Counted from the stretch's first letter, positions 9,475-45,700 are shown. The stretch: DNA of 64,000 nt from an uncultured Sandaracinaceae bacterium (GCA_964495565.1 CAZBWQ010000003.1:7670-71669); one strand, 5' to 3'. Translations and numbers: made by a program. The notes: a model not told the origin generated them from the sequence alone.

Positions 9475-9488
9475 TGAAACGCGTTTCA
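9475..9488. promoter_or_regulatory. KstR-type operator-like perfect palindrome TGAAACGCGTTTCA (site B)
   Basis: It lies 29 nt upstream of the enoyl-CoA hydratase start codon, in the 51-nt gap after the preceding gene. The flanks gAAGTGAAACGCGTTTCAGT closely match site C. Confidence 0.65.
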
Positions 9489-9497
9489 GTGCTCCGG

Positions 9498-10028: not shown

Positions 10029-10124
10029 ACCTCATAAATAAGCAGCGAGGCCGGAATTTGCCTGGTTTCCGACGCCCGTCAACCCTCGGCCGAGGACGGG
10101 CGAAACCCGGTTGCGAGGCGGTGA

Positions 10125-12483: not shown

Positions 12484-12521
12484 GGCTGCGTCGGCCTGAG
12501 TAGACTGCGCAACGGGGAAGC

Positions 12522-14644: not shown

Positions 14645-14649
14645 GTCAC

Positions 14650-16933: not shown

Positions 16934-17626
16934 ATGCAGGTACGCCGGAGCCACGAACGGGGTCATGCCAACTACGGCTGGCTCGACACCCACCACACTT
17001 TTTCGTTCGCGAATTACTACGACCCCGAGCACATGGGGTTTCGGAGCCTTCGGGTCATCAACGACGACCGCGTGGTGGGCGGCGAAGGGTTTCCTACGCA
17101 CCCACATCGCGACATGGAGATCATCTCCTACGTCGTCGAGGGTGCCCTCGAGCACCAGGACAGCATGGGCAACGGGTCGATCATTCGTCCCGGCGAGGTC
17201 CAGCGCATGCGCGCGGGGACCGGCGTGACGCACAGCGAGTACAACCACTCCCGGACCGAGCCCGTGCGGTTTCTTCAAATCTGGGTGGTTCCGGAAAGAC
17301 GCGGAATGGAGCCGGGGTATGCGCAGAAGCTCTTTGGGGACGAGAGACGGGGGCGGCTGAGGCTGGTGGCATCCCGGGACGGTCGTGATGGCTCGGTTCA
17401 GATCGAGCAAGACCTGTCGATGTTTGCCTCGGTCTTGGAAGACGGGCAGCGAGTCCGTCACGAGCTCGCCGATGGGCGTCACGCGTGGATTCAAATCGTG
17501 CGAGGCAGCGTCTCGGTCGACGGAGTCGAGCTGAGCGAGGGTGACGGGGCATCCTTCGACCGGGCCTCGACGATCGAAGTCCAAGCGATTGGCGGCAGCG
17601 AGCTCATCCTCTTCGACGTCGCTTGA
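16934..17626 (+). CDS. pirin family protein (cupin; YhhW/quercetinase-like)
   Basis: Start trimmed to MQVRRSHERGHANYGWLDTHHTFSFANYYDP...GFPTHPHRDMEIISYVVEGALEHQDSMGN...VQRMRAGTGVTHSE, the canonical pirin N-domain. Confidence 0.9.
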   Translation: MQVRRSHERGHANYGWLDTHHTFSFANYYDPEHMGFRSLRVINDDRVVGGEGFPTHPHRDMEIISYVVEGALEHQDSMGNGSIIRPGEVQRMRAGTGVTHSEYNHSRTEPVRFLQIWVVPERRGMEPGYAQKLFGDERRGRLRLVASRDGRDGSVQIEQDLSMFASVLEDGQRVRHELADGRHAWIQIVRGSVSVDGVELSEGDGASFDRASTIEVQAIGGSELILFDVA

Positions 17627-21842: not shown

Positions 21843-22621
21843 GGCAACCTTTCGACTTTTCGAAGACCACCGTGCTGGTGACGGGCGGAAGCCGCGGGAT
21901 CGGCCGAGGCATCGCCGAGGCCTTTTTGGCGATGGGAGCCGAAGTCGTCATCTGCGGCCGGAGCGAGCCCGAGCGTCTGCCCACGGCAAGCGACAACAGC
22001 GCGAGCTTCATCCAGGCCGACGTGCGAGACGCGAACCAAGTCGAGGCGCTGTTCGAGCAGATCCGGAGCCGCCTCGGCCGACTCGACGTCCTGATCAACA
22101 ACGCGGGCGGGGCGCCTCCTGCGGACGCGGCGACGGCGTCGCCTCGATTCTCGGAGAAGGTCATCCAGCTGAATCTCATCGCCGCTCTGCACTGCGCGCA
22201 ACAAGCCAATCGACTCATGCAGGCGCAACGCTCGGGTGGCTCCATCATCAACATCGCGAGCGTGTCGGGGGTGCGTCCGTCGCCCGGAACCGCTGCGTAC
22301 GGCGCCGCCAAGGCCGGTCTCATCAATCTGACGGGAAGCCTGGCCATCGAGTGGGCGCCCAAAGTGCGTGTCAATGCGATCTCGGCGGGTCTCATCGAGA
22401 CCGAGCAAGCGCATCTTCACTACGGCGACCAGGCTGGCGTGGCTCGTGTCGCCGAAACCGTACCCCTCAGGCGCCTGGGCACCTCGGAGGACATCGCCGG
22501 AGCATGCTTGTATCTCGCTTCCCCACTCGCGTCCTACGTGAGCGGCGCCAACCTGCTCTTGCACGGCGGAGGTGAGACGCCCGCCTTCCTCGCCGCCGCA
22601 ACGGCCAACCGTGAGGAGTGA
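21839..22621 (+). CDS. SDR family oxidoreductase
   Basis: Start trimmed to MRQPFDFSKTTVLVTGGSRGIGRGIA (ATGA overlap). NNAG and AAYGAAKAG motifs are present. Confidence 0.85.
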   Translation: MRQPFDFSKTTVLVTGGSRGIGRGIAEAFLAMGAEVVICGRSEPERLPTASDNSASFIQADVRDANQVEALFEQIRSRLGRLDVLINNAGGAPPADAATASPRFSEKVIQLNLIAALHCAQQANRLMQAQRSGGSIINIASVSGVRPSPGTAAYGAAKAGLINLTGSLAIEWAPKVRVNAISAGLIETEQAHLHYGDQAGVARVAETVPLRRLGTSEDIAGACLYLASPLASYVSGANLLLHGGGETPAFLAAATANREE

Positions 22622-22627
22622 GAGCCC

Positions 22628-23767
22628 ATGGACTTTGCGTTTTCGGAGGAACAAAACGAGCTGAGGAGAGTCGCGAGGCGCTTTCTCGAGGTGGCATCCG
22701 CCGAGGACCGGGTCCGCTCGGCGATGGCGACGGAGCGGGGCTACGATCCCTCGGTCTGGGAGCAGCTTTCGAAGGAGCTGGCCTGGACGGCCCTGACCAT
22801 TCCAGAGGAGCATGGGGGGCTCGGCATGAGCTACCTCGACCTCCATCCACTCATGGAGGAAATGGGGCGCGCGTTGCTGTGCTCCCCGTTCTTTTCGACG
22901 ATCTGCCTCGGAGCCAACGCGTTGCTGGTGGGCGGAACCGAAGCCCAAAAGGCCCACTACCTTCCAGCCGTCGCGGCAGGCGACGTGAAGCTGACCCTGG
23001 CTTACGCAGAGCAGGTCCATCCCGACGAGCCCGAAGGGATCGAGACGACGTACCGCCGGGACGGCGTCGACTACGTGCTCACCGGAGCAAAGAGCTACGT
23101 GCTCGACGGCCACACGGCAGACGCGATCATCGTCGTCGCCAGGGCGCCGGGCAGCCGTGGCGCCGACGGCGTGAGCCTGTTCTTGGTGCCCGGGGAGACG
23201 AGGGGCTTGAAGCGCGTCTGGCTGCCGACCATGGATCAAACGCGGCGGTTGGCCGCGTTGCAACTCGACGACGTCGTCGTTCCACGCGATGCGCTGGTGG
23301 GCCTCGAAGGAAGCGGATGGACCTCGTGCGAAAAAACGCTCGATCTCGCGAGAATCGCCCTCGCTGCGGAGCAGGTGGGCGGCGCCGAGAAGACACTCGA
23401 CATGTCGGTCGAGTACGCGAAAGTGCGCCAGCAGTTCGGCCGGCCGATCGGGTCGTTTCAGGCGATCAAACACAAGTGTGCCGACATGCTGACGATGGTC
23501 GAGTCCGCACGGTCCGCGGCGTTCTATGCGAGCGCGCTGGCTTCGCAGGGCGAGCAGGATCTCGCCGAAGCGGCATCAGGCGCGAAATCGTATTGCTCCG
23601 ACACCTTCTTTCACTGCGCTGCGGAGAACATCCAGATCCACGGTGGGATCGGGTTTACCTGGGAGCATCCCGCCCATCTGTATTTCAAGCGAGCGAAATC
23701 CTCGGAGGCTCTTTTCGGGGATCCTCCTTTTCACCGCGAGCGCGTCGCGCGATGCATGGGGTTGTGA
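22628..23767 (+). CDS. acyl-CoA dehydrogenase (first of an adjacent pair)
   Basis: 379 aa; MDFAFSEEQNELRRVARRFLE..., ...REQFGRPIGSFQAIKHKCADM..., ...QIHGGIGFTWEHPAHLYFKRA. Confidence 0.9.
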   Translation: MDFAFSEEQNELRRVARRFLEVASAEDRVRSAMATERGYDPSVWEQLSKELAWTALTIPEEHGGLGMSYLDLHPLMEEMGRALLCSPFFSTICLGANALLVGGTEAQKAHYLPAVAAGDVKLTLAYAEQVHPDEPEGIETTYRRDGVDYVLTGAKSYVLDGHTADAIIVVARAPGSRGADGVSLFLVPGETRGLKRVWLPTMDQTRRLAALQLDDVVVPRDALVGLEGSGWTSCEKTLDLARIALAAEQVGGAEKTLDMSVEYAKVRQQFGRPIGSFQAIKHKCADMLTMVESARSAAFYASALASQGEQDLAEAASGAKSYCSDTFFHCAAENIQIHGGIGFTWEHPAHLYFKRAKSSEALFGDPPFHRERVARCMGL

Positions 23768-24942
23768 TGGAGCTACAGCTGACCGAAGAGGAAGAAGCGT
23801 TCCGACAGGAAGTGAGGTCCTGGCTCGCCGAGCAGCTCGGTGGGCCTTACCGCCATCTCCGCGGGCGTGGCGCGTCGGGTGACCAGGAGTCCTACGTCGA
23901 AGAACGCATCGAGTGGGGCAAAGTCATGGGAGCGGCAGGCTGGAACTGCATCGGGTGGCCCGAGGAATACGGTGGCCGCGGCTGCACCATCAAAGAGGAA
24001 GCGATCTTCAACGAGGAGTACGTGCGCGCCAACGGCCCCGGTCGAGTCGGCCACATCGGAGAGACTTTGCTCGGGCCCACGCTGATTCACTTCGGGACGG
24101 ACGAGCAGCGACGGCGTTTTCTCCCACCGATCGTGTCGGGCGACGAGATCTGGTGTCAGGGCTACTCGGAGCCGGGCGCCGGATCCGACCTCGCCAACGT
24201 GCAGACCAAAGCGACCCTCGTGGGGAACGAATGGATCATCGAAGGACAGAAGATCTGGACCTCCGGGGCGCTGCACTCGGACTGGTGCTTCGTCCTGTGC
24301 CGAACGGACCCTTCGGCACCCAAACATCGGGGTATCAGCTACATCCTGGTGCCGATGCACCAAGACGGCATCGAGATTCGGCCGATCAAGCAAATGAGCG
24401 GAGGAGCCGAGTTCGCCGAAGTGTTCTTCGATGGCGCGAAGGCACGACAGGATCACGTGGTGGGAGGAGTCAACGAGGGCTGGAAGGTCGCGATGGGAAC
24501 GCTGGCGTTCGAGCGCGGCGCATCGACCTTGGGTCAGCAGTACCTCTTCCAACAAGAGCTCGAGCAAGTGCTCGAGACTGCCAAGCGGACAGGCGCCGCC
24601 AAGGATCCCGTCTTCCGCCAACGCCTCGCGGCTGCCCAGATCGGCTTGAGGATCATGCGAGTCAATGCGCTGCGCACGTTGGAGCACCAGGGCGCAGACC
24701 TGAGCCGTGAAGCGCTGATCAGCAAGCTCTATTGGTCGAACTGGCACCGCGATCTCGGTAAGCTCGCCATGGACGTGCTCGGCCTAGACGCGGAGCTCAT
24801 CGAGGGGACGCCTTACGAGCTGACCTCGATGCAGAAGTGGTACCTATTCGCGAGAGCCGATACGATTTACGCAGGCTCGAACCAGATTCAAAGAAACATC
24901 ATCGGCGAGCGAGGGCTCGGCCTCCCGAAGGAGCCTCGATGA
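23767..24942 (+). CDS. acyl-CoA dehydrogenase (second of the pair), paralog of 4605..5765
   Basis: Start trimmed to MELQLTEEEEAFRQEVRSWLAEQL (TGATG junction). ...WCQGYSEPGAGSDLANVQTKA..., ...YAGSNQIQRNIIGERGLGLPK. Confidence 0.9.
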   Translation: MELQLTEEEEAFRQEVRSWLAEQLGGPYRHLRGRGASGDQESYVEERIEWGKVMGAAGWNCIGWPEEYGGRGCTIKEEAIFNEEYVRANGPGRVGHIGETLLGPTLIHFGTDEQRRRFLPPIVSGDEIWCQGYSEPGAGSDLANVQTKATLVGNEWIIEGQKIWTSGALHSDWCFVLCRTDPSAPKHRGISYILVPMHQDGIEIRPIKQMSGGAEFAEVFFDGAKARQDHVVGGVNEGWKVAMGTLAFERGASTLGQQYLFQQELEQVLETAKRTGAAKDPVFRQRLAAAQIGLRIMRVNALRTLEHQGADLSREALISKLYWSNWHRDLGKLAMDVLGLDAELIEGTPYELTSMQKWYLFARADTIYAGSNQIQRNIIGERGLGLPKEPR

Positions 24943-26799: not shown

Positions 26800-27843
26800 A
26801 TGCGCCTCGGACTGACTCTCGGATACGCAGGTCCTCAACTGAACACGACGGTGCAGGACCTCGTGAACATGGACAAGATTGGCGAGGTCGAAAGGCTCGG
26901 TTACGACTCGATTTGGACGGCCGAGTCGTGGGGCAACGACGCCGTCACCCCCCTCGCGTGGGTGGGCTCCCAGACCTCCCGCATCAAGCTCGGCACCGCG
27001 ATCATGCAGCTCCCGGGACGCTCTCCGGCCAACGCCGCGATGACGGCCATGACGATGGACATCCTCTCCAACGGCCGCTTCATCATGGGGCTCGGAACGT
27101 CGGGGCCGCAGGTCGTCGAAGGATGGCATGGTGTCCCCTTCCACAAGAGCCTCACCTGGCTTCGTGAGTACGTGACGATCGTGAAGAAGATCTTCGCGCG
27201 TGAGGCCCCTCTCGAGTTCGACGGGGAGCGCTATCAGATCCCGTACACCGGCGAGGGGTCCTCGGGCCAAGGGAAGCCTCTTCGGAGCATGATTCGGAGC
27301 CGGCCGGACATTCCCGTGTACACGGGCTCGATGGCGCCGAAGTCGCAGGCGATGTCGGCTGAAATCGCCGACGGCTGCCTGCTGACCTGCATGCATCCGG
27401 AGCGCCCCGACGTGCTCATGGAGAACTTCGACGAGGGATTCGCCAAAGCCGGAAACGGAAAAGGACTCGAGAGCTTCGACATCGCGCCCACCGTCGTAGT
27501 CATCATCGGTGAGCCCGAGCAGGCGATGGTGCCTTGCAAGATGCAACTGGCGCTCTACATCGGCGGGATGGGGTCCCGAAAGAAGAACTTCTACAAAGAC
27601 TACCTGAGCCGGGTGGGCTTCGAAGAAGCGTGTGAGAAGGTGCAGACCCTGTTCTTGGACGGCAAGCGCAATGAGGCGATCGCGGCGGTCCCAGACGAAA
27701 TGGTCGATGCCCTCTACCTGGTGGGGTCCAAGGATCGAATTCGCGATCGCTTCCAGCGGTGGAAAGAGTCCCCCGTCGGCACCATGATGATCGGCTCGCA
27801 GGACATGGACACGCTACGGTTCATGGCCGAGCTCAACGCGTGA
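26800..27843 (+). CDS. luciferase-like monooxygenase (LLM) class oxidoreductase, probably F420-dependent
   Basis: Start trimmed to [13 protein letters not shown] with GGAAGGAG upstream. ...[20 protein letters not shown]...[15 protein letters not shown]... is the LLM fold. It is the first gene of the operon that continues into npdG-cofE-cofD-cofC. Confidence 0.8.
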
Positions 27844-27853
27844 GGTAGAATCA

Positions 27854-28510
27854 ATGAAGATCGGAATCGTGGGTGGCACCGGCCGTGAAGGACGCGGCCT
27901 CGTGGCTCGATGGGCCAAAGCAGGACACGACGTGTTCATCGGGTCGCGCCAGGCCGAAAAGGGCGCAGCCAAGGCGGCTGAGCTGACCGAGGAGCTCGGC
28001 GTCGACATCCGGGGCGCAGACAACCTGACGGCTTGTCGCGAGTCGGAGCTCATCGTCGTCACGGTGCCCTACGGCGCGCACCGAGCCACGTTCGAGTCGA
28101 TTGCAGAAGCCGTGGGAGACAAGATCCTGGTCGACATCACCGTGCCCCTCCAACCGCCGAAGGTCCGATCGGTGCACTTGCCGGAGGGTCAGGCCGCCGC
28201 GCTCGAAGCACGGGAGCTACTGCCGGAAGGAACGCGTCTCGTGGCGGCCCTCCACCACATCAGCTCCGAGCACCTGACCGATCCGGATCACGACTTCGAC
28301 TGCGACGTGTTGGTTTGTGGAGACGACAAAGAGGCGCGGGCCGCGGTCATCGATCTGATCTCCGATCTGGGGTTGCGAGGCATCGATGCGGGCGTGCTCA
28401 AGAACGCCATCGCACTCGAATCGCTCACTCCGGTGTTGCTTCACATCAATCGCCGCTACAAAGTCGTGGGCTCGGGGATCCGCATCACGGGCATTCCGGA
28501 GTCGGAATGA
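27854..28510 (+). CDS. npdG: NADPH-dependent F420 reductase
   Basis: 218 aa; [32 protein letters not shown]... and ...[20 protein letters not shown]... match the NpdG/Fno pattern. Confidence 0.8.
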
Positions 28511-29322
28511 CCCGAGCCGAGCCAGCTGCAGGCGCGCTGCAAGTCGGCTCGGAGCTGTGGGTCCGCGCCCTTCCGGGCATCCCGACGGTTCGTCCCGGCG
28601 ACGATCTCGCGGCGATTCTCGTCCGGAGCTTGGTCGATGCGGGGATCGCGCTAGTGGACGGGGACGTCGTCGTGGTCGCTAGCAAGATCGTTTCCCGCGC
28701 GGAAAATTGCTTCGTCGACCTGGGCGGCATCGTCCCGAGCGATCGGGCGCTCGAGCTCGCACGCGAGGTCGACAAAGACCCGCGGCTGGTGGAATTGATC
28801 ATTCGCGAGAGCACGGCGGTCTCTCGGAAGAGAATCGGGGCGCTGATCGTGCGTCATCGCCTGGGCTTCATCTCCGCCAATGCCGGCATCGATGCCAGCA
28901 ATGCGGGGGATGTCGCAGACGACTCGCCGTCGGGGACCTGGGTGCTGACGCTTCCGCGTGATCCCGATGCGACCGCGATGGCCCTTCGCGCGGCGCTCTC
29001 CGAGCGTTTCGCCGCGGACATCGGCGTCGTCATCAGCGACTCGTGGGGCCGGCCCTTTCGCCGCGGCACGGTGGGCTTCGCGATCGGCATCGCAGGCGTT
29101 CCCGCTCTGTGGGATCGACGAGGCGCGCCCGACCGGCATGGACGGGTCTTGGAGGCGACCGAATCAGCGGTCGCGGATTCCCTGGCGGCCGCGGCCGACC
29201 TCGTGGCGGGGCAGGCTGACGAGGGCCGCCCCGTGACGCTGATCCGAGGGCTGCGCTTCACCCCATCCCTGGATTCGGCCCAGACCATCATGCGCGACCC
29301 CGAAACCGACTTGTACGCATGA
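28507..29322 (+). CDS. cofE: coenzyme F420-0:L-glutamate ligase, single-domain form
   Basis: Start trimmed to MTRAEPAAG (ATGA overlap). ...[15 protein letters not shown]...[11 protein letters not shown]...[21 protein letters not shown].... Confidence 0.85.
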
Positions 29323-30254
29323 CGGAGCCATCAGGAGCGAGCCACCACGTGGTCGCGCTGGCTGGGGGGGTCGGCGGTGCAAGGCTCGTCGACGGGCTCG
29401 ATCGTGTGTTGCCCCCCGGGGCTTTGACGATCATCGCGAACACGGGCGACGACTTCGAGCACTGGGGTCTGCACATCAGCCCCGACCTCGACACCATCAT
29501 GTACACCCTGGCCGGGTTGGCGCCGCAAGACCGCGGGTGGGGGATTGACGGCGACACCTTTCACGTCCTCGAAGAGGCCCGTCGAAGAGGGGAGCCCGAT
29601 TGGTTTCAACTCGGCGATCGCGACTTGGTCACGCATCTGTCGCGATCGGCGGCCCTCTCGAGAGGGATGACGCTCACCGAGGCCACCCGTGCACTCTGCC
29701 TGTCCTTGGGAGTCGATCGCCCGATTCTGCCGATGAGCGATCGACTCCGCCCGACCACGATCGTGACCGAGCGAGGGGCAGAGCTCGCGTTTCAAGACTG
29801 GCTGGTGCGACAGAGAGCAGAGCCGTCGGTGCGCGAGGTTCGTCACGGAGGCTCTGCGGTGCCCTCGCCGTCGGTGCTCGACGCGCTCGAACGTGCGACC
29901 TTGGCGGTGATCTGCCCGTCCAACCCGTACGTGTCGGTCGATCCCATCCTCTCGCTTTCCGGCGTCCGTGAGCGAGTGAGCGCCATCCCCGCGATCGCCG
30001 TGAGCCCCATCCTCGGCGGACGCGCGGTCAAAGGCCCTCTCGCAAGCATGCTCGTGGAGCTCGACGGATGGCAGCCTTCGGCCCAAGCGGTAGCGCAGCA
30101 CTACGAAGGGCTCTTGGACGCGTACGTCGTCCACGAGGGCGATGGGTTCGATGCGCCCTACCCCGTGCTCGAAACGAACATCCTGATCGAATCCGAAGAA
30201 GACCGGACAGCTTTGGCGCGCGAGCTGCTCGTGCTCGCCCGAGGCTTGCCATGA
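29319..30254 (+). CDS. cofD: 2-phospho-L-lactate (or analogue) transferase
   Basis: 311 aa; ...VVALAGGVGGARLVDGL...IIANTGDDFEHWGLHISPDLDTIMYTLAG...WFQLGDRDL... is the CofD/FbiA signature. ATGA overlaps on both sides. Confidence 0.9.
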   Translation: MTEPSGASHHVVALAGGVGGARLVDGLDRVLPPGALTIIANTGDDFEHWGLHISPDLDTIMYTLAGLAPQDRGWGIDGDTFHVLEEARRRGEPDWFQLGDRDLVTHLSRSAALSRGMTLTEATRALCLSLGVDRPILPMSDRLRPTTIVTERGAELAFQDWLVRQRAEPSVREVRHGGSAVPSPSVLDALERATLAVICPSNPYVSVDPILSLSGVRERVSAIPAIAVSPILGGRAVKGPLASMLVELDGWQPSAQAVAQHYEGLLDAYVVHEGDGFDAPYPVLETNILIESEEDRTALARELLVLARGLP

Positions 30255-30847
30255 GCTGCTGGGCACTCGTACCGACCAAGGGATTCGATCGGGGAAAGTC
30301 GCGGTTGGCCGCGGCGTTGCCACCGAGCGAGCGTTCGCGGTTGGCCCGAGAGATGTTCGAGCACGTCATCGACGTTCTTCGTGCCTCCGCGACCGTCGAC
30401 GAAATCGCCGTGGTGAGCGACTCCGCACGCACGCGGCGTCGTGCAGAGCACCTCGGGGCCGTGCCACTCGCGGACGCGGAGGGGAGCGAAGGATTGGCCT
30501 CCGTCGTGGATGCCGCGATCGCCGAGTTGAAACTTCGCGGAGCCACGCGCGTGATCGTGTGCATGAGCGATCTTCCCGAGCTCGGCGACGAAGACGTCGC
30601 GGTCGTGAGCCGGAGGCTCGACGAGTTCGACGTGGTGCTGGGGCCCGATCTTTCCGATCGGGGCACCAACCTCATCGGGATGAAACCGGCCGCTGCGCTA
30701 CCGAGCTGCTTGGGCCACGAAGACAGCCTTCGCCGCCATCGCGAGCGCGCACGCACCCTCGGTCTCGAGGTGCACGTCGAACGGCGGCCGGGTATCGCCT
30801 TCGACGTCGACCATCCTGGAGATCTCGACCGCCTGCGCCGCCGCTAA
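30251..30847 (+). CDS. cofC: phospholactate/PEP guanylyltransferase (CofC/FbiD family)
   Basis: Start trimmed to MSCWALVPTKGFDRGKSRLAAALPPSERSRLAREMF, the typical CofC N-terminus. ...CMSDLPEL...GTNLIG.... Confidence 0.8.
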   Translation: MSCWALVPTKGFDRGKSRLAAALPPSERSRLAREMFEHVIDVLRASATVDEIAVVSDSARTRRRAEHLGAVPLADAEGSEGLASVVDAAIAELKLRGATRVIVCMSDLPELGDEDVAVVSRRLDEFDVVLGPDLSDRGTNLIGMKPAAALPSCLGHEDSLRRHRERARTLGLEVHVERRPGIAFDVDHPGDLDRLRRR

Positions 30848-31653
30848 TGACTCGCCGAGAAGCGGTCCATCACCATTCCGAACATCCGTCTGCTGAGCCA
30901 TCGGGGCAGCAGCGTCATTGCGATGACCGTCAGCTTGTTGACGACGCCCGGAATCACGGTCACGCGGCGACCCATCTTTTTCATGCTGGCTCTCACGACG
31001 TGGCTCGGGCTCGAAAAGATCAGGGCCGCAAACGGACCGAAGCGGCGCGGCTCGAGACCGGCAACCTGCTGAAATTCCGTGCGCGTCCCGCCGGGGCACA
31101 GAGCCTGCACGTCGACGCCGTACGGCGCGAGCTCGGACGCGAGCCCCTCGGCAAAGAGGAGGTCGTATGCCTTCGTCGCGTTGTAGTTGGCCATCCCGCG
31201 AGCGGCGCAAAACGCGTTGACCGAGGAAACGACGACGATGCCGCCACGGCCTCGATCCCGCATTCCCTGTGCAAGCTCGTGAGTCAACAGAGCAGGTGCG
31301 CGGCAGTTGAGGTTGATCATGGATTCCTGGACGTGGAGATCCATGTCGAGAAACGGACCGCTCGAGCCGAAACCCGCGCAGTGCACCAGAAGACCGATCT
31401 CGAGGTCCTCGATCACCGGCTGCAAGACCCGCATCGGGTCCCGTGACGCGAGATCGACGGGCGCCACCCGCACCTCGACGCCGCAAGCATCCTCGATGAT
31501 CGCGGCGAGCTCTTCGAGCCGCTGACGCCGCCTCGCGACCAAGACGACGTGGATTCCTCGTTCTGCGATGCGACGCGCGTATTCCGCTCCGATCCCGGCG
31601 GAAGCTCCCGTGATCACCGCCCACGGGCCGTATCGCTCGGCGAACTCGCCCAT
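30844..31653 (-). CDS. SDR family oxidoreductase, last gene of the cofG-cofH operon
   Basis: 269 aa; ...WAVITGASAGIGAEYA..., ...NYNATKAYD.... Its start is 2 nt after the cofH stop. Its stop codon overlaps the convergent cofC stop (CTAA). Confidence 0.85.
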   Translation of the reverse strand: MGEFAERYGPWAVITGASAGIGAEYARRIAERGIHVVLVARRRQRLEELAAIIEDACGVEVRVAPVDLASRDPMRVLQPVIEDLEIGLLVHCAGFGSSGPFLDMDLHVQESMINLNCRAPALLTHELAQGMRDRGRGGIVVVSSVNAFCAARGMANYNATKAYDLLFAEGLASELAPYGVDVQALCPGGTRTEFQQVAGLEPRRFGPFAALIFSSPSHVVRASMKKMGRRVTVIPGVVNKLTVIAMTLLPRWLSRRMFGMVMDRFSASH

Positions 31654-31655
31654 GC

Positions 31656-32933
31656 TCAGCCGACGACCCGCAGTCCCCGGGGCTCGTAATGAAATCGCGG
31701 ATCCCGGGTGAGCGCGTCATAAGAGCCGAACACCTGCTCGCAATCGTCGATCGAATCGAGCGGCTCGACCGGATCGGTTTCGGCGGACATGCCGAAATCG
31801 CGTACCACTCCATAGGTCGTCGTTCGTTGAACCGGAAGGCGGCCTGCGTCCCGAATCGCTCGCCGCAGCGTGGCCGGCGTCATGAGCTGACCGTGTCGGG
31901 CGCCCGCGGCGGTCGAGATGCTCTCGTTCATCAGGGTCCCTCCGAGGTCGTTGACACCACAGCTGAGCAGAAACTGTGAGACTCGAAGCCCTTCCTTGAC
32001 CCAAGATGCCTGAAGATTGGGGATGTCTCGGCCGAGCATGAGGCGCGCGGTCGCATACAGACGCAGCACGTCGTCCCCGGTCGGTCCCGGCCGTACACCG
32101 GGCACCTTGCTCGAAGCGAACAGTGGCGCTTCCTCGTGTACGAAGGACAGCGGAACGAACTCCGTGAAGCCGCCCGTCTCGCGTTGAACGCTGCGCAACA
32201 GCTCCATGTGCAGCATTCGCTGTTCGACCGATTCGACGTGACCGAACATCATCGTCGACGTCGTGGGTATCCCCAAGCGATGAGCGGACTCGATGACCTC
32301 CAACCACTCACCGGTCGTGATTCGAGTCGGAGAAATCGTCTTCCGGAGTCGATCATCGAGGATCTCCGCCGAAGTGCCCGGCAAGGACCCGAGGCCGGCT
32401 TCCTTGAGCTCGGCGAGGTAGTCCGCGTACGGGACGCGTTTGAGCGAAGCTCCGAACTTCACTTCCTCCGGCGAAAATGCGTGAATGTGGATTTCGGGGG
32501 CTGCTCGCTTGACCACCTTGCAGAGCTCGACGTAGCTGTCCGCGGTGAGGTTGGGCGACAGCCCCGCCTGGAGGCATACCTCCGTCGCACCCATCTCCCA
32601 TGCCTGCCGTACGCGGTGCGCGATTTCGTCGTGCGGCAGGAAGTACCCCTGCTCCGACCGCACGGTGCGGGCAAACGCGCAGAACTTGCAGTTCTTGATG
32701 CACACGTTCGTGAAATTGATGTTTCGGTTGACCACGTAGGTGACGCGGTCACCGGCTTGTTGTCGCCGTAGCTCGTTCGCAACGAGGCAGAGCGCGTGAA
32801 GGTCCACCCCCCGCGCCTCGCTCAGCGCCACCCCCTCCTGCACACCGATCTCGCGACCCTCCAGGCTTTGCTCGAGAATCACGCGGATGGTCGGGGAAAC
32901 GGATTGAAGACAGCTTTCGAGAGCGGTGGTCAT
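31656..32933 (-). CDS. cofH: FO synthase subunit 2 (radical SAM)
   Basis: Start trimmed to MTTALESCLQ (ATGA overlap). ...NRNINFTNVCIKNCKFCAF... is the radical-SAM cluster; C-terminal ...GGTLMNESISTAAGARHGQ...QRTTTYG. Confidence 0.85.
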   Translation of the reverse strand: MTTALESCLQSVSPTIRVILEQSLEGREIGVQEGVALSEARGVDLHALCLVANELRRQQAGDRVTYVVNRNINFTNVCIKNCKFCAFARTVRSEQGYFLPHDEIAHRVRQAWEMGATEVCLQAGLSPNLTADSYVELCKVVKRAAPEIHIHAFSPEEVKFGASLKRVPYADYLAELKEAGLGSLPGTSAEILDDRLRKTISPTRITTGEWLEVIESAHRLGIPTTSTMMFGHVESVEQRMLHMELLRSVQRETGGFTEFVPLSFVHEEAPLFASSKVPGVRPGPTGDDVLRLYATARLMLGRDIPNLQASWVKEGLRVSQFLLSCGVNDLGGTLMNESISTAAGARHGQLMTPATLRRAIRDAGRLPVQRTTTYGVVRDFGMSAETDPVEPLDSIDDCEQVFGSYDALTRDPRFHYEPRGLRVVG

Positions 32934-34072
32934 GGCCCGGTGAGCTCCAATTGCAGGCGGTCGACGTGAGGACGCAACGATGGATCCACGAATCCAGCGG
33001 TCGCGAGGTGCGAGGGATAGATCGGCAGTCGTGGCTCCAGCCGAAAACCCTCTTCTCGGCAAACGTGTCGAAGGGCCTCGAGATGAGGCCAGGGATGGGA
33101 TGGATTGATGTAGTCCGGGCTGACCGGAGAAATCCCGCCGAAATCGTTGATTCCGGCGGCAATCAGAGTGCAGGCGGCAGCGGGGCTGAGGTTTGGCGGA
33201 GCCTGAACGCTGATCTCGTCGTCGAGCAGCAAGCGGGCAAGCGCGATCGTCCGGGCCAGGTCCTCGGAAGTCGGCTCGGGAGCGCCCGCCATCGGAATCC
33301 GTGGGTGCGAGCGGAAGTTCTGCACGATCACCTCTCCGATGTGACCGTGCTCCGCGTGCAACTCTCGTATCGCGAGGATCGTGTCGATGCGTTCCGCTAC
33401 CGTCTCGCCGATTCCGATCAGCAGCCCGGAGGTGAACGGAATCTGCAATTCGCCGGCCTCGCGCGTCATGCGAATCCGCTTGGCGGGCCTCTTGTCGGGC
33501 GCACGATGATGCGGCATGCCCTTTTCGCACAACCGCTCGCTGACGTTTTCGAGCATCAGCCCGAGGCTGACGTTCACCGGCTTCAGCGTGAGCATTTCCT
33601 CGCGCGTCAGAATCCCCGCGTTGGTGTGCGGGAGCAGGCCGAGCGCAAGCGCTTCCTCGGCGACCCAGCGCAGATAATCGACGGTGCGCTCGTGTCCCCA
33701 CGATCGGAGCAAGGCGCGATACTCTCGAAACCCGGTCTCGGGAGTGTCTCCGAGGCAGAGCAGCGCCTCCACGCAACCTTGCTCGCGCGCGCGTCCCAGC
33801 CAGGTCCGGACTTCTTTCGGGCTCATGGTCCACTCGCCCGGATCACCCGGAGAGCGCCGAAACGAGCAATAGTCGCACTGGTTTCGGCAAAGGTTGGTGA
33901 TCGGCAAGAACACCTTCGGGGAGAAAGTGAGAGCCTTTCCCCAAGCTCGGTCACGACGCGTTCGAGCGGCCGAGAGCAGGCCGTCGGTGTCCGCCTCGGC
34001 GAGGCGATGGGCATCCGAGGCCTCGACCGGGCTCGAGCTGGCTCGCCGCAGAATCGCCGAAGCGGAGGTCAT
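32930..34072 (-). CDS. cofG: FO synthase subunit 1 (radical SAM)
   Basis: Start trimmed to MTSASAILRR (ATGA overlap). ...FLPITNLCRNQCDYCSF..., ...INDFGGISPVSPDYINPSHPWP.... Confidence 0.88.
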   Translation of the reverse strand: MTSASAILRRASSSPVEASDAHRLAEADTDGLLSAARTRRDRAWGKALTFSPKVFLPITNLCRNQCDYCSFRRSPGDPGEWTMSPKEVRTWLGRAREQGCVEALLCLGDTPETGFREYRALLRSWGHERTVDYLRWVAEEALALGLLPHTNAGILTREEMLTLKPVNVSLGLMLENVSERLCEKGMPHHRAPDKRPAKRIRMTREAGELQIPFTSGLLIGIGETVAERIDTILAIRELHAEHGHIGEVIVQNFRSHPRIPMAGAPEPTSEDLARTIALARLLLDDEISVQAPPNLSPAAACTLIAAGINDFGGISPVSPDYINPSHPWPHLEALRHVCREEGFRLEPRLPIYPSHLATAGFVDPSLRPHVDRLQLELTGP

Positions 34073-34944
34073 GGCATCTTGGCGATAACGTTGTCCGCGA
34101 ACCGTTTCAAGCCGTCGATTCGGCCCTCCAAGGTTCCGCCCACCATCGGGGTGCCATACATGAGCCAAGGCACTGTGATGATGTCCGTGACGCCAGCCTC
34201 CTCGAGCCGCTTGTAGCCATCCGCATCCCAGACGTCGGTCACGACCGCCTGGTATTCCATCGGGAGATGATCGCGGCCGTATTCCTTGCGGAACGCTTCG
34301 ATTTGCGCGATCAGAGCAAGCAACTGCTTGGAGGGCAGCATCGCCGAAGACCACCCGTCCCCATACTTTGCAGCGCGCCGGAGGCCCGGCTTGCTGTGTC
34401 CGCCGATGTAGATGGGAATCGGCTCGGTCGGTGCCGGGCTCATCTGGATCTTTCCGAAGTCGTAGTGCTCGCCGTGGTACTCGACCATCCCTCCGCCCCA
34501 GATCAGACGAAGTATCTCCAGGCATTCGTCCATCCGTTTGCCGCGAGTGTCGAAATCGGTGCCACACCACTTGAACTCTTCGGGAAGCCAGCCGAGCCCG
34601 CATCCGAAGCCGAACCGATTGTTGGAAATCGCAGCGAGCGATGCCACTTGTTTCGCCACCAACACGGGATGACGCACAGGGAGCTTCACCACGCTGGTGT
34701 AGAAGAAGATTCGTTCCGTCGCGCCCGCCATCGCGGCCGCTCCGACCAGCGGCTCGATCCAAGGTGTCTCGCCGTCCCACATGCGGCTTCCGTCCTGCGT
34801 GTACGGATACGGCTTGCTCACCTCTTGCGAAAAGAAGATCGAGTCCGGCAGGACGACGGCATGGTACCCGAGCTTTTCGGCCTCTCGTGCGACCGGGATG
34901 TACTGCTCAGGAGGCGCCATGGCGATGGAGACGCTGAACTTCAT
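34069..34944 (-). CDS. LLM class oxidoreductase, probably F420-dependent; first gene of the cofG-cofH operon
   Basis: 291 aa; MKFSVSIAMAPPEQYIPVAREAEKLGYHAVVLPDS...NNRFGFGCGLGWLPEEF.... Confidence 0.8.
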   Translation of the reverse strand: MKFSVSIAMAPPEQYIPVAREAEKLGYHAVVLPDSIFFSQEVSKPYPYTQDGSRMWDGETPWIEPLVGAAAMAGATERIFFYTSVVKLPVRHPVLVAKQVASLAAISNNRFGFGCGLGWLPEEFKWCGTDFDTRGKRMDECLEILRLIWGGGMVEYHGEHYDFGKIQMSPAPTEPIPIYIGGHSKPGLRRAAKYGDGWSSAMLPSKQLLALIAQIEAFRKEYGRDHLPMEYQAVVTDVWDADGYKRLEEAGVTDIITVPWLMYGTPMVGGTLEGRIDGLKRFADNVIAKMP

Positions 34945-34975: not shown

Positions 34976-36243
34976 TCACGCCCTGTCGCGCGGGATTCGA
35001 TTGCCGATCACGCGGGTGACGTTGAGCCAGGCCAGCATCTTTGCGGACAGCAACGGTTTGCCGGTGTTGAGGAACGCGACGCTGATGTCGCGGTCGGGAT
35101 CGGCCCATCCGAGCACGTTGGTGAACCCGAGATGCCCGTAGGCGTTTGCGGTTCGAGGACCATAAAACCCGAATCGGCGCCCGCCGAGCATGAACCCCAT
35201 CGACAGCGGAATCGGCATCATCAAGACCCGGTCTACTTGCCCAGTGACCTGTGGCTTGACCGCGCGAGCCACGGTCCGTGGATCGAAGACCCGCGTGTCC
35301 TCGAAGGTTCCACCGCAAAGCAGGGTTTCGAAGAACCGAGATATCTCTTCCGGCGTCGCGATGAGGTTCCCGGCCGGCACGACGGCCGTCCGAAAACGCG
35401 GATCGTTGGCAATCTCGACCAGCTCCCGCATCGACGCGCCGAAGGCCACTTGAACCAGATTTTTGTAAGGCCACGTGGGTGCCGGTCCGGTGAAGGCATC
35501 GACGGCGACTCGATCCAGCTCGTCGGCGGAGACCCCAAATCGGAAGTGCCTCATCTCGAGTGGGTCACGGATCTTGGTCTTCAAGAAGCTCTGGATGTCC
35601 GTCCCGGTCACGCGCCGAATGATCTCACCGAGAATGAAGCCGCTCGTGATCGCCTGATAGGCCTGGACGCTCCCAGGCCGATGGGTGGGCTCGAGCTCAC
35701 AGAAGGCCCGCACGATCTCGTCGGGCCTGGACAACAAATCCAGGTCGATTGCCTCCTCGGGCGTCGGCGGGATGCCTGCCCGATGCGTGAGAATGTCCCG
35801 AATCGTGATGTTGTGCTTTCGCTTCTTCGCGAACTCGGGAATGAAGGTTGCGACCGGCTCGTCGACGTGAAGCTGCTCTTGCTCCTGAAGCAGGTGAATC
35901 AACATCGCCGTGACGGTCTTCGATCCGGAAAAGAAGTTGTACAGCGTGTCCGGAGTTGCCTTCACCAGCGGCGTACCTTCCGGATCGTCCGGGCTGTTGC
36001 CGCGTGCATGACCGATCGCGCGGTCGAGGATGATCTCGCCGCGGCGCCGAATGCACAGCGCGATGGCGGGATGAAGCCCCGTCTTGTAGAACCTCACCAC
36101 CGCGTCCCAAATCGCATCGACGTCGTCTTTGGTCAGACCCACCGCCCTCGGATCGGTCTCGCGGTGACTTTTGATCGTCACCTCGTCGGGATCGAACACG
36201 CGAACGGTGATTGGGCGCAGATCCCGAATACGAAGCCTCTGCA

Positions 36244-36244
<1 letters not shown>
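34976..36244 (-). CDS. serine hydrolase, beta-lactamase/esterase (class C-like) family
   Basis: ...YNFFSGSKTVTAM... (SxxK). ATG 36244 forms a TGATG junction with the metH stop. C-terminal ...AYGHLGFTNVLGWADP.... Confidence 0.8.
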
Positions 36245-39921
<3,677 letters not shown>

Positions 39922-42343: not shown

Positions 42344-43747
42344 TCACGAAAGGCTCGAGATCGGGCGCAGCGCTCCGATGAAACGCCGTGCGACCTCCAT
42401 GCGATCGATCTTGCCCGATCGGTTCAATGGCAGAGCCTCGACGATGCAGATCTGCTTGGGATGCTTGTACGACGCCAAGTCTCGGTCGAGTCGTGCACGC
42501 AAGGCATCCACTCGGTAAGCGCCGGGCTCGATCTCGAGGGCTGCCACCACGCGCTGTCCCCACTCTTCATCCGGGACCGAGAACACGCACGCAGCCCGGA
42601 CGCCGGGCACGGCTTCGAGGGATGCTTCGACTTCCCGAGGCGCCACGTTCTCACCGCCGGTGACGATCATCTCGTCGAGGCGGCCGTGGACCATCAGCTG
42701 CCCGTCGGTCGAAAACGCCCCCGCGTCCCCGGTGCGAAACCACCCGTCGTCCGTCCATGACGCGCCCATGCGATCTTCGTCGAGATATCCATCCATGAGA
42801 ACCGATCCCCGGATCTGAATTTCGTCTCGTCGAATGCGGAGCCCGATGCCTTCGAGCGGCGCGCCCGAACCCGGCGTCCCGATTTGATGTAGACTCTGTG
42901 TCGCGACCTGTGAGCATGCCTCGGTGCATCCGTAGGTCGCCAGCGCGGGAATTCCGCGCTCGACGGCACGACGGCGAAGCGAGTCGGGAAACGGAGCGCC
43001 GCCCACCAGCACGGCCCGAAGCGCTGGATCGGGCGCCCAACGAGGCTCGTCGCAAGACAAGAGCCGGTGCAACATCGTCGGCACCACGCTCAACAAGGTC
43101 ACTCGATCCCGCTCCATGATCCGGATCGCACGCTCTGCTTCGAAAGGACCTTCGCTCAACGCTACGCACCTGCGTGCGATCAAGCACCGGGTGAGTATCG
43201 AGAGGCCCCCAACGTGAGCCGGCGGCATGCACAAGAGCCATCGGTCCTCGGGCTCCCAAGGCAGGTTCGACGCATGGGCGGAGGCCGAAGCGACGAACGC
43301 GCGGCGCGACAGCCGTGCGCCGCGGGGCACGCCGCGGGTGCCGGAGGTGTAGACCACGGCCAGCGTGCGCTCTTCGGGAACCGTGCGATCGCCGAGCTCA
43401 ATTTGTTCGCCCGAAGCCGAGGACTCCGGGGGCGCGCCGTCGATTCGGTACACGGGCTGCGATTGCGAGAGCACGGTGCCGCGCTCGCGGTCGGTGAGAC
43501 GCGGATGCAGGAGGACCGCAGGACACCCGATCTCGAAGAGCGCATACAACCACACGGCGGAGGCCAGATCCGGGCGCGGAGCGATTGCGATGGGATCGCC
43601 AGGCTCGATCCCACGCGCACGAAGCGCACGCATGGCTCCGCGCACGCGCTCGGCCACCTCGGCATAGGACAACGCTCGCCCTCGATCGACGAGGCAGTCG
43701 CGGGTGGCATCCTCCCTTGCCGCGGCCAACACGCTGAGCTCACGCAT
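42344..43747 (-). CDS. menE: O-succinylbenzoate-CoA ligase
   Basis: Start trimmed to [13 protein letters not shown]. ...VVYTSGTRGVPRGARLS..., ...YGCTEA..., ...WFRTGDAG... ANL motifs. It sits at the end of the men operon. The specific substrate is inferred from context. Confidence 0.78.
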   Translation of the reverse strand: MRELSVLAAAREDATRDCLVDRGRALSYAEVAERVRGAMRALRARGIEPGDPIAIAPRPDLASAVWLYALFEIGCPAVLLHPRLTDRERGTVLSQSQPVYRIDGAPPESSASGEQIELGDRTVPEERTLAVVYTSGTRGVPRGARLSRRAFVASASAHASNLPWEPEDRWLLCMPPAHVGGLSILTRCLIARRCVALSEGPFEAERAIRIMERDRVTLLSVVPTMLHRLLSCDEPRWAPDPALRAVLVGGAPFPDSLRRRAVERGIPALATYGCTEACSQVATQSLHQIGTPGSGAPLEGIGLRIRRDEIQIRGSVLMDGYLDEDRMGASWTDDGWFRTGDAGAFSTDGQLMVHGRLDEMIVTGGENVAPREVEASLEAVPGVRAACVFSVPDEEWGQRVVAALEIEPGAYRVDALRARLDRDLASYKHPKQICIVEALPLNRSGKIDRMEVARRFIGALRPISSLS

Positions 43748-44813
43748 CGGATGGTTCCTCCAGATGGAGCCCGAGGCCGGGCTGGTCGTGCCCGACGATT
43801 TCGCGGCCGCGGATCGCGGCGATGTCGTGCGACGGCCACAAGTCGAGCGCTGGGTGCGGCCCGAGGCCGGCCGCCAGCTCGGTGCCCAAGGCCAAGGCCA
43901 GCTCGGCAGTCGCGGCCCTCGCGATGGGCCCGTCGAAGCAGTGGGATACCAGCGCGCGTGCTCCATGCGCGGCGGCATGCCTCGCGATCTCGAACGATGC
44001 GAGGAACCCGCCCAACACCATCGGCTTGAGAACGACTGCACGGATCTTTCCGGTCTCGAGCAGCCGCTGCGAAAGAGACCCGTCGCGCAAGGTCTCGTCG
44101 AGCGCGAAAGGCAGCGGCAGGCCGAGCACCTCGGGCCAGCTCGCCTTGGGCACGGGCTCCTCGATCAACTCGACCTCGAGGGCCTCGAGGGCCGAGGCAT
44201 GCCGCTCGAGCGCTCGAGGCGGGATCCTACCGTTGGCATCCAGCCGAAGCGTGACGTCCGGATGCGCCTTGCGAATTCGGCTCAGCTCCGCCACCTCGGC
44301 GTCGAGGTTTGCTCCGATCTTGAGCTTGAGATGCGTCGCCCCGTCTTCGGCGAGCCGATCGACGCACGCGGACCACGCGCCGTGATCGGATGTCGGGACC
44401 AGATCCGCCATGGGAACCGGTCGACCGATGGCTGGGTCGGCGAGAAGCCGATGCACCGGCCGGCCGCGGTTGTGACCCAGCCAATCCAGAAGCGCCGTCT
44501 CGAGGGCGAAGCGACAAGAAGGGCCGGTCACCGGATGCGCGGCCCACGCATCGGCCAATAGCGCCAGTGGCGTCGACAGCGCGTCGACCTCGAGGGGGGC
44601 CTCCACCAATCGTGCGAGCTCGCGCTCGACGCCGTCGAATGCGTCCGGTGAGTATCCTGGCAGGGGCGAGGCCTCTCCGAGCCCGAAGGTGCCGTCCGAG
44701 CGCGTCAGTTGGAGCACGGCGAAGCTGCGTTTGGCAAGCCCGGAGGCGGCGCCGACGAGCGTCTGCGGGAGCGCCCCTTCGAGCAGATCGAGCTTCGCGT
44801 GCAACTCGGTCAT
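43740..44813 (-). CDS. menC: o-succinylbenzoate synthase (enolase superfamily)
   Basis: Start trimmed to [11 protein letters not shown] (ATGA overlap). ...HLKLKIG..., ...TLRLDANG..., ...IEEPV..., ...ALDETL.... Confidence 0.78.
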
Positions 44814-45700
44814 AGGGCGATCCCCAGCGCGAACGACGCTCCGAACACCGAGAGCAGCTTGGCGGTGCCGGCCAGCGTGCGATTGAGCGCCGGTCCACGG
44901 TCTTCCGCCACCGAGCGAAACAAGCGCGCCGCCCATGGCAGCGTCAACAGCGGCAGGCAGACCCAAACAGCGCTCGCACCCGAAGCGAACATCACGACCG
45001 GCGTCACGTAGGCCGCGCCGAGCAGCAGCGCGTATTCACACACGCCGCCGCGTCTCCTCAACCGGACGACCAAAGTGCGTTTGCCGGCGCGCTCATCTCC
45101 TTCGACGTCGCGCACGTTGTTGACGACCAAAATCGCGGTAGCGAGGGCGCCGATCGGGATCGATGCGGCCCACGCCACACTCGGAACGAAAGACGCTTGG
45201 ACGAACGCCGTACCGCACACCGCCACGAATCCGAAGAAGGCCATCACGAATACGTCTCCCAGACCGTTGTATGCCAATGGAAACGGTCCTCCGGTGTAAG
45301 CGAGCCCGGCGGCCATGGAGGCCAGCCCGATGACCACCACGACGGGGCCGGCGATCCAGGTCAGATACACCCCGACGATCAAAGCGAGCGCGAAGGTGAC
45401 CGCGATTCCACGTCGGAGCTGTACCGGGGTCAGAAGGCCGGCCTGGGCGGCGCGCACCGGACCCAGACGGTGCTCGGTATCGGCTCCCTTCTGAAAGTCG
45501 TAGAGGTCGTTGGCGAAGTTGGTGCCGATTTGGATGAGAAACGCCCCGAGGAGCGCGGCCAGCGCCGCATCCGCGCGAAACGCGTGGGCGTCCCACGCGC
45601 AGGCCGTGCCGACGGCGACGGGCGCAAAGGCGGCGGGAAGCGTCGCGGGACGCGCGGCGAGCGTCCAGGCGCGCACCGACCCCGGGCGCACGCTCGTCAT
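44810..45700 (-). CDS. menA: 1,4-dihydroxy-2-naphthoate polyprenyltransferase
   Basis: 296 aa, polytopic; ...[17 protein letters not shown]... is the UbiA-family Asp-rich motif. Confidence 0.85.

Follow-up and report, generated by a model that had tools for sequence, protein, structure and literature searches.

A probable Gram-negative-type coenzyme F420 biosynthesis and recharging cluster in an uncultured, sediment-dwelling relative of the Polyangiales

A 64-kb stretch of DNA from an uncultured Sandaracinaceae bacterium (CAZBWQ010000003.1:7670-71669 of assembly GCA_964495565.1), the whole of which is referred to here as the window, very likely carries a functional-looking cluster for the biosynthesis and recharging of coenzyme F420, of the type found in Gram-negative bacteria, in a sediment-dwelling relative of the Polyangiales, an order of the Myxococcota. 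F420 is a low-potential hydride carrier that serves in methanogenesis, in the biosynthesis of antibiotics, in the breakdown of xenobiotics and in the activation of prodrugs. The reading is carried by the identities of the genes, by their intactness and packing into operons, by their conservation in relatives and by the lineage of the host. By open reading frame (ORF) listing, translation and start-codon placement we found that positions 26800-34944 are filled exactly by nine intact genes with no frameshifts, 26800 and 34944 being the start codons of the two outer genes, LLM1 and LLM2. The first-pass annotation of the window had given the same nine genes, with the same order, strands and limits, and had placed them in two convergent operons; it is exact in each of these respects.

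Nine intact genes in two convergent operons

The plus-strand operon has the order LLM1-npdG(fno)-cofE-cofD-cofC and converges on a minus-strand operon with the order LLM2-cofG-cofH-SDR. Family calls are based on NCBIfam profile scores (in bits) relative to curated cut-offs, and eight of the nine proteins exceed the cut-off of a specific family with almost end-to-end coverage of the profile, which bears out eight of the names first proposed; the ninth, a short-chain dehydrogenase/reductase (SDR), is generic. The plus operon is headed by LLM1 (26800-27843), an oxidoreductase of the luciferase-like (LLM) class and the Rv3520c family that matches TIGR03559 end to end (370.7 versus a cut-off of 335). 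It is followed by npdG, or fno (27854-28510), for an NADPH-dependent F420 reductase (TIGR01915, 208.8 versus 149.8), the recharging enzyme that had been anticipated; by cofE (28507-29322), for a short-form F420-0:L-glutamate (gamma-glutamyl) ligase (TIGR01916, 246.3 versus 180.65); by cofD (29319-30254), for the 2-phospho-L-lactate or enolpyruvyl transferase to the deazaflavin FO (TIGR01819, 270.7 versus 257.45); and by cofC (30251-30847), for the GTP-dependent guanylyltransferase of the three-carbon phospho-acid linker (TIGR03552, 128.5 versus 105). On the minus strand, LLM2 (34069-34944) is an LLM oxidoreductase of the Rv2161c family (TIGR03619, 206.2 versus 166.9), cofG (32930-34072) and cofH (31656-32933) specify the radical S-adenosylmethionine (SAM) subunits 1 and 2 of FO synthase (TIGR03550, 415.9 versus 213.35, and NF004884, 408 versus 209, for CofG; TIGR03551, 467.6 versus 374.1, for CofH), and the SDR (30844-31653), encoded by the last gene, matches the SDR superfamily only.

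The genes are tightly packed. Start and stop codons overlap by 4 bp at six junctions, an arrangement typical of translational coupling, and the stop codons of cofC and the SDR gene overlap each other; cofG has such 4-bp overlaps both with LLM2 upstream, to which it is coupled, and with cofH downstream. Nine family matches side by side, with 4-bp overlaps at six of the joins, are far more than chance would give. A GAGG motif stands 10 nt 5' of the npdG start, and the G+C content of the cluster (0.63-0.67) is the same as that of the remainder of the window. A promoter and terminator scan of 25.5-41 kb was uninformative, with zero sigma-70-like sites and fewer terminator-like sites than in shuffled sequences, and Rfam and tRNA scans of the 64 kb gave no matches.

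Beyond the outer limit of the minus-strand operon, the gene for a beta-lactamase-fold serine hydrolase (34976-36247, minus strand) ends 31 bp upstream of LLM2, and its start is overlapped by 4 bp by the stop of metH (36244-39921, minus strand), which encodes cobalamin-dependent methionine synthase. The cofG/cofH operon may thus start further upstream and share a transcript with metH; the Rfam scan of the window showed no cobalamin riboswitch.

Conservation and host lineage

Relatives were taken from a CofH scan with one genome per species. The closest CofH proteins are those of L001 (86% identity, labelled 'uncultured bacterium') and of L002 (84%) and L003 (81%), both metagenome-assembled genomes (MAGs) of Polyangiales bacteria. 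The next matches, at 49-60%, come from 'delta proteobacterium' MAGs, Dehalococcoidia, Methylomirabilota, Eremiobacterota/Vulcanimicrobiota and Nitrosopumilus, and the CofH proteins of actinobacterial MAGs reach only 47-50%. The window is collinear with L001 over 15 kb and with L002 over 20 kb at ~74% nucleotide identity, and the collinear flanks take in acyl-CoA dehydrogenase, SDR, epimerase, serine hydrolase and metH genes, an indication that the likeness extends to the genomes themselves and does not stop at a mobile cluster. The arrangement of the cluster recurs in L001 and L002, and partly in L003, with amino-acid identities of 61-92%, which, together with the collinear flanks, argues for purifying selection and vertical inheritance in a Polyangiales-type lineage.

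From the submitters' MAG labels and this synteny we place the host, which is uncultured and known only from metagenomes, among the sediment-dwelling relatives of the Polyangiales. An AsmA-family protein encoded in the window fits a diderm cell and, with the ~20 kb of collinearity to Polyangiales MAGs, upholds the initial impression that the genome is not actinobacterial. An identical CofH with the same neighbours is present on short contigs from three independent metagenome runs, and metagenomes of pond, sediment, aquaculture and mangrove samples contain nearly all of the DNA of the cluster, one of them with an assembler depth of ~9x. On L039, a MAG contig that bears the label 'uncultured Enterobacterales', LLM1-npdG-cofE-cofD as well as cofG-cofH are present and are 54-63% identical to their counterparts in the window; the label is an unlikely one for such a cluster and may reflect a binning or classification error.

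Conservation also bears on the question of whether FO alone is relevant here, for example as a photolyase antenna, the remainder being a decaying or silent acquired cluster. FO by itself is a chromophore in some organisms, and tested Alphaproteobacteria gave only traces of F420 (PMC8498797). Moreover, shallow RNA runs from the one study holding the organism, when compared with 22-42 kb of the window, gave a few short, 90-95%-alike fragments, mostly of metH, and no expression support for the cluster. However, none of the nine ORFs is interrupted and their coupling is tight, Fno and both LLMs of F420 families share operons with the biosynthetic genes, the conserved clusters of at least three related MAGs differ from this one at many synonymous sites (74% nucleotide versus up to 92% amino-acid identity), and Pfam scans found no photolyase among the ORFs of the window. 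We consider it very unlikely that FO is the only relevant product, and favor a cluster maintained for F420 itself.

FO synthase and the choice of linker

The steps proposed for the cluster are taken from the established biochemistry of the enzyme families. CofG and CofH would together build FO out of tyrosine plus 5-amino-6-ribitylaminouracil, an intermediate of riboflavin, with CofH cleaving tyrosine and transferring its 4-hydroxybenzyl group to the ribitylaminouracil and CofG closing the ring. CofC would activate a three-carbon phospho-acid with GTP, CofD would move the activated phospho-acid onto FO to give F420-0 or dehydro-F420-0, and the short CofE would attach the gamma-glutamyl tail. 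Fno would swap hydride between NADPH and F420, and LLM1 and LLM2 would be the local users of F420 and F420H2.

CofG and CofH are encoded by separate ORFs of 380 and 425 aa that lie in different frames and overlap by 4 bp, and the CxxxCxxC motif of radical-SAM enzymes is intact in both (CRNQCDYC in CofG, CIKNCKFC in CofH). PF19288, the CofH_C family, is on record for a protein identical to the CofH of the window. The model for bifunctional FbiC, NF006687, is half-matched by each of the two (419.7 and 469.3 bits versus a cut-off of 1018), and a fused FO synthase, with CofG and CofH in one polypeptide of ~850 aa, is not what this locus encodes; the split form read initially from the DNA stands, each subunit exceeding its own cut-off.

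CofH-type enzymes are homologous to MqnC and MqnE of the futalosine pathway, and a radical-SAM pair of that kind would leave the set without a head-group synthase, an outcome that the first-pass annotation had named as fatal to its proposal. The scores of CofH against MqnC (355.8) and MqnE (319.7) are indeed sizeable, but they fall below the respective cut-offs of 428.1 and 434.55, and those of CofG (80.2 and 70.8) fall far below them, whereas both proteins pass the thresholds of their own families. Moreover, cofG and cofH show translational coupling and are oriented toward cofC, cofD and cofE, and the MenF, MenD, MenH, MenA, MenC and MenE families are all represented at 42.3-49.7 kb, so that the futalosine route is not needed. 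An MqnC/MqnE identity for the pair is extremely improbable, and we retain its assignment to FO synthase. The classical menaquinone genes stand in a row (42344-49653, minus strand, with approximate gene limits) and specify a MenE-like AMP ligase, a MenC-like member of the MR/MLE family, a MenA-like UbiA prenyltransferase, a MenH-like alpha/beta-hydrolase, a MenD-like thiamine pyrophosphate enzyme and a MenF-like chorismate-binding enzyme; beyond them lie genes for an HMG-CoA reductase (50291-51505) and a polyprenyl synthase (51530-52729).

Three routes to F420 have been described: from 2-phospholactate (2-PL) in archaea, from phosphoenolpyruvate (PEP) in Actinobacteria and Chloroflexi, and from 3-phosphoglycerate (3-PG) in Mycetohabitans. 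In the PEP route, reduction of dehydro-F420-0 falls to the nitroreductase-type domain of FbiB or to a stand-alone FbiE (PMC8498797). A Ser or Thr at position S162 of CofC (Mycetohabitans rhizoxinica numbering, used throughout) has been shown by mutagenesis to be diagnostic for 3-PG, with Met91 and His145 as supporting positions, and Leu in place of Met91 and Arg in place of His145 form the pattern of CofC enzymes that use 2-PL or PEP (PMC8764529). Alignment with 7P97, the 3-PG guanylyltransferase of Mycetohabitans, and with 6BWG, the FbiD of Mycobacterium tuberculosis, revealed that the CofC of the window keeps every catalytic residue, namely K20, K26, R28, D116, T147, N148, S165, D191 and D193, with the Mg-binding aspartates and the Lys, Thr and Ser that bind substrate among them. 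The S162 position is Gly (Gly155), as it is in all 23 aligned homologues, Met91 is replaced by Leu, and His145 is replaced by Arg (Arg137). This combination points to classical F420 made from 2-PL or PEP and not to 3PG-F420, and one of these two linkers, between which the sequence does not discriminate, is what we would expect.

Production of 3PG-F420, as in M. rhizoxinica, would remove the need for a dehydro-F420 reductase. Indeed, 7P97 is by far the closest solved structure to CofC (E 4.8e-20, versus 1.4e-4 for FbiD of M. tuberculosis), CofE is short, and we found no nitroreductase-type reductase nearby; the Polyangiales CofC proteins have, in addition, a one-residue insertion in the substrate loop. 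Against this stand the Gly, Leu and Arg residues just described and the finding that other Gram-negative CofC enzymes, those of Paracoccus and Oligotropha, do not use 3-PG (PMC8764529). We regard a 3-PG linker as improbable and continue to favor 2-PL or PEP. The insertion (LG-H-EDS versus xG-xxS, residues 155-159) is found only in the window and its L001-L003 homologues and lies between the 3-PG-diagnostic Gly and the conserved carboxylate-binding Ser. CofC linker assays require the cognate CofD (PMC8764529), which in the window matches CofD of Methanosarcina mazei (3C3D, E 4.5e-54) slightly better than FbiA of M. smegmatis (6UVX, 1.2e-49).

The 271-aa CofE aligns over its whole length with the solved ligases 2PHN (E 4.6e-42), 7ULD and 2G9I (E about 5e-42), and its ORF stops 1-2 residues past the ligase domain, with no C-terminal nitroreductase domain. 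The model for fused, FbiB-type proteins, NF009810, gives it only 189 versus a cut-off of 304, and among the loci compared a C-terminal extension (204 aa) is found only in the actinobacterial locus L062. A tblastn search of the window and 80 loci with the C-terminal domain of L062 FbiB, a single actinobacterial query of limited sensitivity, found only itself, and no nitroreductase-family ORF was found up to 10 kb from cofH in the 61 loci that are not actinobacterial. When 3,305 ORFs of 62 loci were clustered all against all, no extra conserved partner, such as a candidate 2-PL kinase, emerged; the groups consisted of shadow ORFs, Fno, LLMs, SDRs of a generic kind and neighbours specific to the Dehalococcoidia lineage. 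With a short CofE and no nitroreductase-type reductase in the window, either a 2-PL source or a reductase for the PEP route is unaccounted for, and the set, described at first as complete, is so for its five core genes but not for this step. The same difficulty is general, the supply of 2-PL and the reduction of dehydro-F420 being unexplained for Gram-negative carriers (bioRxiv 10.1101/670455).

Were the linker derived from PEP, dehydro-F420-0 would have to be reduced by an FbiE-type nitroreductase encoded elsewhere or by LLM2 or the SDR of the cluster. The PEP route is established in Actinobacteria and Chloroflexi and has been suggested for Ca. Entotheonella (PMC8498797, PMC8764529), a stand-alone FbiE-type nitroreductase exists, as in Thermomicrobium, the match of CofD to M. 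smegmatis FbiA nearly equals that to archaeal CofD, and a TIGR03619-like LLM adjoins cofG or cofC in four phyla. However, the searches for a nitroreductase-family ORF in the 64 kb and around cofH in the 61 non-actinobacterial loci were negative, the SDR is dispensable, being missing in L002, and the LLMs encoded beside F420 genes may be no more than users of the cofactor. A PEP linker with such a reductase is possible, if somewhat doubtful; the broader expectation of classical F420, by way of 2-PL or PEP, is the one we carry forward.

Candidate F420 users, catabolic neighbourhood and related systems

NpdG scores above the cut-off of the Fno equivalog model, aligns at full length with solved Fno enzymes (5N2I from Thermobifida fusca, E 6.5e-45, residues 2-214; 1JAX from Archaeoglobus, 3e-34) and is predicted to be an NADPH:F420 oxidoreductase. 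LLM1 and LLM2, put forward earlier as F420-type LLM enzymes, both exceed their subfamily cut-offs (TIGR03559 and TIGR03619) and on this basis are predicted to be F420-dependent. The nearest structures to LLM1 are F420-dependent methylene-tetrahydromethanopterin reductases (Mer), such as 8QQ8 (E 7e-19); the protein is 87-90% identical in L001 and L002 and 63% identical in L039, and in all three its gene lies directly upstream of npdG. LLM2 is 91-92% identical in L001 and L002, and its nearest structures are mixed, comprising the FMN-dependent RutA (3e-16) and the F420-dependent hydroxymycolic acid dehydrogenase 9FP4 (1e-14).

We mapped the F420-related ORFs across 62 loci to follow the placement of LLM genes, which have been noted in such F420 clusters as LLHT genes (PMC8498797). 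The gene immediately upstream of cofG is a TIGR03619-like LLM gene in the Polyangiales group, in three Methylomirabilota MAGs (scores of 246-261, above the cut-off) and in a betaproteobacterial MAG, of Pseudorhodoferax (146, below it), and in ~18 Dehalococcoidia loci an LLM gene lies directly downstream of cofC (142-150, below the cut-off, with TIGR03619 still the best family). LLM2 could conceivably act in biosynthesis, as a non-nitroreductase enzyme that reduces dehydro-F420-0 to F420-0 in bacteria with a short CofE and without FbiE; we think this quite unlikely, but if true, an LLM2-type reductase would close the gap in the 'Gram-negative' F420 pathway. The Dehalococcoidia loci (L008-L035, L043) have cofG-cofH-cofD-cofC-LLM in one direction and no cofE within 10 kb, and many of them have a second TIGR03619-type LLM gene ~6 kb upstream on the opposite strand.

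The SDR, whose best family match is a mycolate reductase (151 versus a cut-off of 380) and whose nearest structure is the alcohol dehydrogenase 6ZDZ, is present in L001, L003 and L081-L083 and missing from L002, where cofH and cofC abut. Because L002 dispenses with it, the SDR is not a required part of the cluster, and a role as an essential pathway member is ruled out. It was rightly listed as the last gene of the minus operon, but it is probably an accessory outside the F420 system.

Upstream of the cluster, at 0.4-26.7 kb, is a region dense in lipid- and steroid-type catabolic genes, with a steroid C/D-ring (HIP) set on both strands within 473-15870. Two CoA-transferase-like subunits are encoded on the minus strand, one IpdA-like (7833-8678; chains A of 6CO6 and 6CON, E 6e-106 to 3e-103) and one IpdB-like (7072-7860; chains B, E 6e-84 to 2e-77). 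We take these structures, the PDB names of which read 'probable CoA-transferase', to be IpdAB; the next relative of the two subunits is glutaconate CoA-transferase, at 1e-25 and 8e-19. IpdAB is told apart by replacement of the catalytic glutamate, by Gly57 in R. jostii IpdB (PMC5380842), and the IpdB-like beta subunit of the window likewise has a Gly aligned to Gly57 of 6CO6_B, where true transferases carry the catalytic Glu. The set further includes a FabK/NMO-like reductase that is a candidate IpdC (5774-7075), an enoyl-CoA hydratase above its model cut-off (8688-9446), a FadD3-family ligase (10125-11726; 765 versus 657), a second SDR (11707-12483) and a CasG-like ligase of the steroid-24-oyl-CoA synthetase type (12878-14644; 683.6, just under the cut-off of 750), as well as two thiolases, acyl-CoA dehydrogenases (one of them IpdE2-like), an SCP2 protein and a ChsH2-type OB-fold protein.

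The IpdAB, FadD3-family and IpdC-like genes are 11-20 kb upstream of the F420 cluster, and there are parallels elsewhere. Rv3520c, the namesake of the LLM1 family, has a KstR operator in M. tuberculosis (PMC1995591) and is listed within the cholesterol catabolic region of that organism (PMC6429209). In Sterolibacterium denitrificans, cofC, cofD and cofE are directly beside the gene for the acyl-CoA synthetase ACS3 and other steroid genes (PMC6678751, Fig. 11 legend). A contribution of F420 to reductive or oxidative steps of the neighbouring steroid-ring or lipid catabolism is plausible but unproven; in the literature searched we found no report of a functional link between F420 and steroid catabolism, or of IpdAB in Myxococcota.

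Two further ORFs of this region stand apart. One (15884-16810, minus strand) encodes a ~308-aa protein that matches neither Pfam nor NCBIfam families and has an N-terminus resembling a signal peptide, and it adjoins a pirin-family gene (about 16940-17626, plus strand). Homologues 68-83% identical to the ~308-aa protein occur on dozens of metagenome contigs (loci L084-L124). A metagenome scan with the ORF from 15884 on gave three short syntenic contigs (L100, L101 and L117) that end before the F420 genes; apart from these three, the 25 contigs of >6 kb that were checked have none of the window's neighbour genes. The second (22618-24942, plus strand) is a 774-aa ORF, 72-76% conserved in L001 and L002, the C-terminal half of which is a complete, PimC-like acyl-CoA dehydrogenase (residues 389-766) and the N-terminal 380 residues of which have no counterpart in Pfam; the ORF may represent a fusion or two separate genes.

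Several points weigh against a working F420 pathway with local users in this host. CofD clears its cut-off only narrowly (270.7 versus 257.45), the cofactor of LLM2 is predicted by family alone while FMN enzymes are among its nearest structures, and the metatranscriptomes from the study holding the organism are too shallow to show expression of the cluster. Pfam scans of all codon-bias-supported ORFs of the 64-kb window found no nitroreductase-family dehydro-F420 reductase, and we know of no organism in which a source of 2-PL (CofB) has been identified; given both, the pathway as encoded may be incomplete or may yield another product. The adjacency of steroid and F420 genes was not seen in the other lineages sampled, and the genome loci of the relatives are too short to tell; a role for F420 in steroid catabolism is here a lead by proximity only. 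Placement of the host, finally, draws on MAG labels and not on a marker-gene phylogeny.

By all sequence tests, nonetheless, the cluster belongs to the known F420 pathway in its Gram-negative architecture. It resembles the clusters of Paracoccus denitrificans, Oligotropha carboxidovorans and Ca. Entotheonella (Ney et al. 2017, as relayed in PMC8498797), and likewise those of Pseudorhodoferax (L057) and Methylomirabilota (L010, L012 and L015), in having split CofG and CofH, a short, stand-alone CofE, CofC and CofD, with Fno as the only recognisable F420-reducing enzyme nearby, an LLM gene beside cofG and a CofC of the 2-PL/PEP type. It differs from them in its two convergent operons, in the Rv3520c-family LLM gene that heads the fno operon, in the steroid-ring genes nearby and in its Polyangiales-related host, and its proteins are only 30-58% identical to theirs. 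The 3PG system of Mycetohabitans (Paraburkholderia) rhizoxinica shares with it a Gram-negative host, a short CofE and the absence of a dehydro-F420 reductase, as far as the 64 kb of the window go, and has the closest solved CofC. In contrast, the window has Gly, Leu and Arg for Ser162, Met91 and His145 of CofC, and it has two LLMs and Fno, whereas M. rhizoxinica is without known F420-dependent enzyme families (PMC8498797).

Mycobacterial FbiA, FbiB, FbiC and FbiD use the same chemistry to form FO, to activate and transfer the linker and to add glutamate, and the LLM1 and LLM2 families (Rv3520c and Rv2161c) are named after M. tuberculosis genes. Unlike the mycobacterial pathway, that of the window has an unfused FO synthase, a CofE without the FMN-dependent nitroreductase domain and no Fgd nearby. 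The archaeal CofC, CofD, CofE, CofG and CofH proteins, which use 2-phospho-L-lactate, are identical gene for gene in domain architecture, and 3C3D and 2PHN are the best matches to CofD and CofE of the window; the host here is a bacterium, however, and may or may not use the same route. S. denitrificans is also Gram-negative and has F420 genes by steroid genes, IpdC- and IpdAB-type CoA-transferase-like genes among them (PMC6678751), but it belongs to the Betaproteobacteria and its genes are immediately adjacent, versus ~11 kb apart in the window; no functional link is reported for either.

Wide horizontal spread of the F420 pathway is known, and standard annotation pipelines would name these genes correctly. 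The carriers given in a 2021 review are Actinobacteria, Chloroflexi, Alpha- and Betaproteobacteria, Tectomicrobia, Acidobacteria, Firmicutes, Nitrospinae, Rokubacteria and Dadabacteria, with no mention of Myxococcota or Deltaproteobacteria, and experimental study of F420-dependent enzymes has been confined to those of Actinobacteria and Archaea (PMC8498797). We found no description of F420 biosynthesis in myxobacteria in the literature searched, and, according to a 2025 paper, reports that myxobacteria use F420 in their secondary metabolism are lacking (PMC11876861).

The cluster adds a myxobacterial sediment lineage, not in the 2021 list, to the predicted producers of F420. Because it is compact and conserved, the whole set of five biosynthetic genes, the fno gene and the two LLM genes lends itself to expression as one unit, and it could serve in asking which linker Gram-negative bacteria choose and how dehydro-F420 is avoided or reduced. 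The steroid context and the recurrent, operon-embedded LLM add to its interest. The proximity of IpdAB and FadD3, taken with the KstR operator of Rv3520c and with the cofCDE genes of Sterolibacterium, makes a role for F420 in the degradation of steroids or alicyclic acids a testable one.

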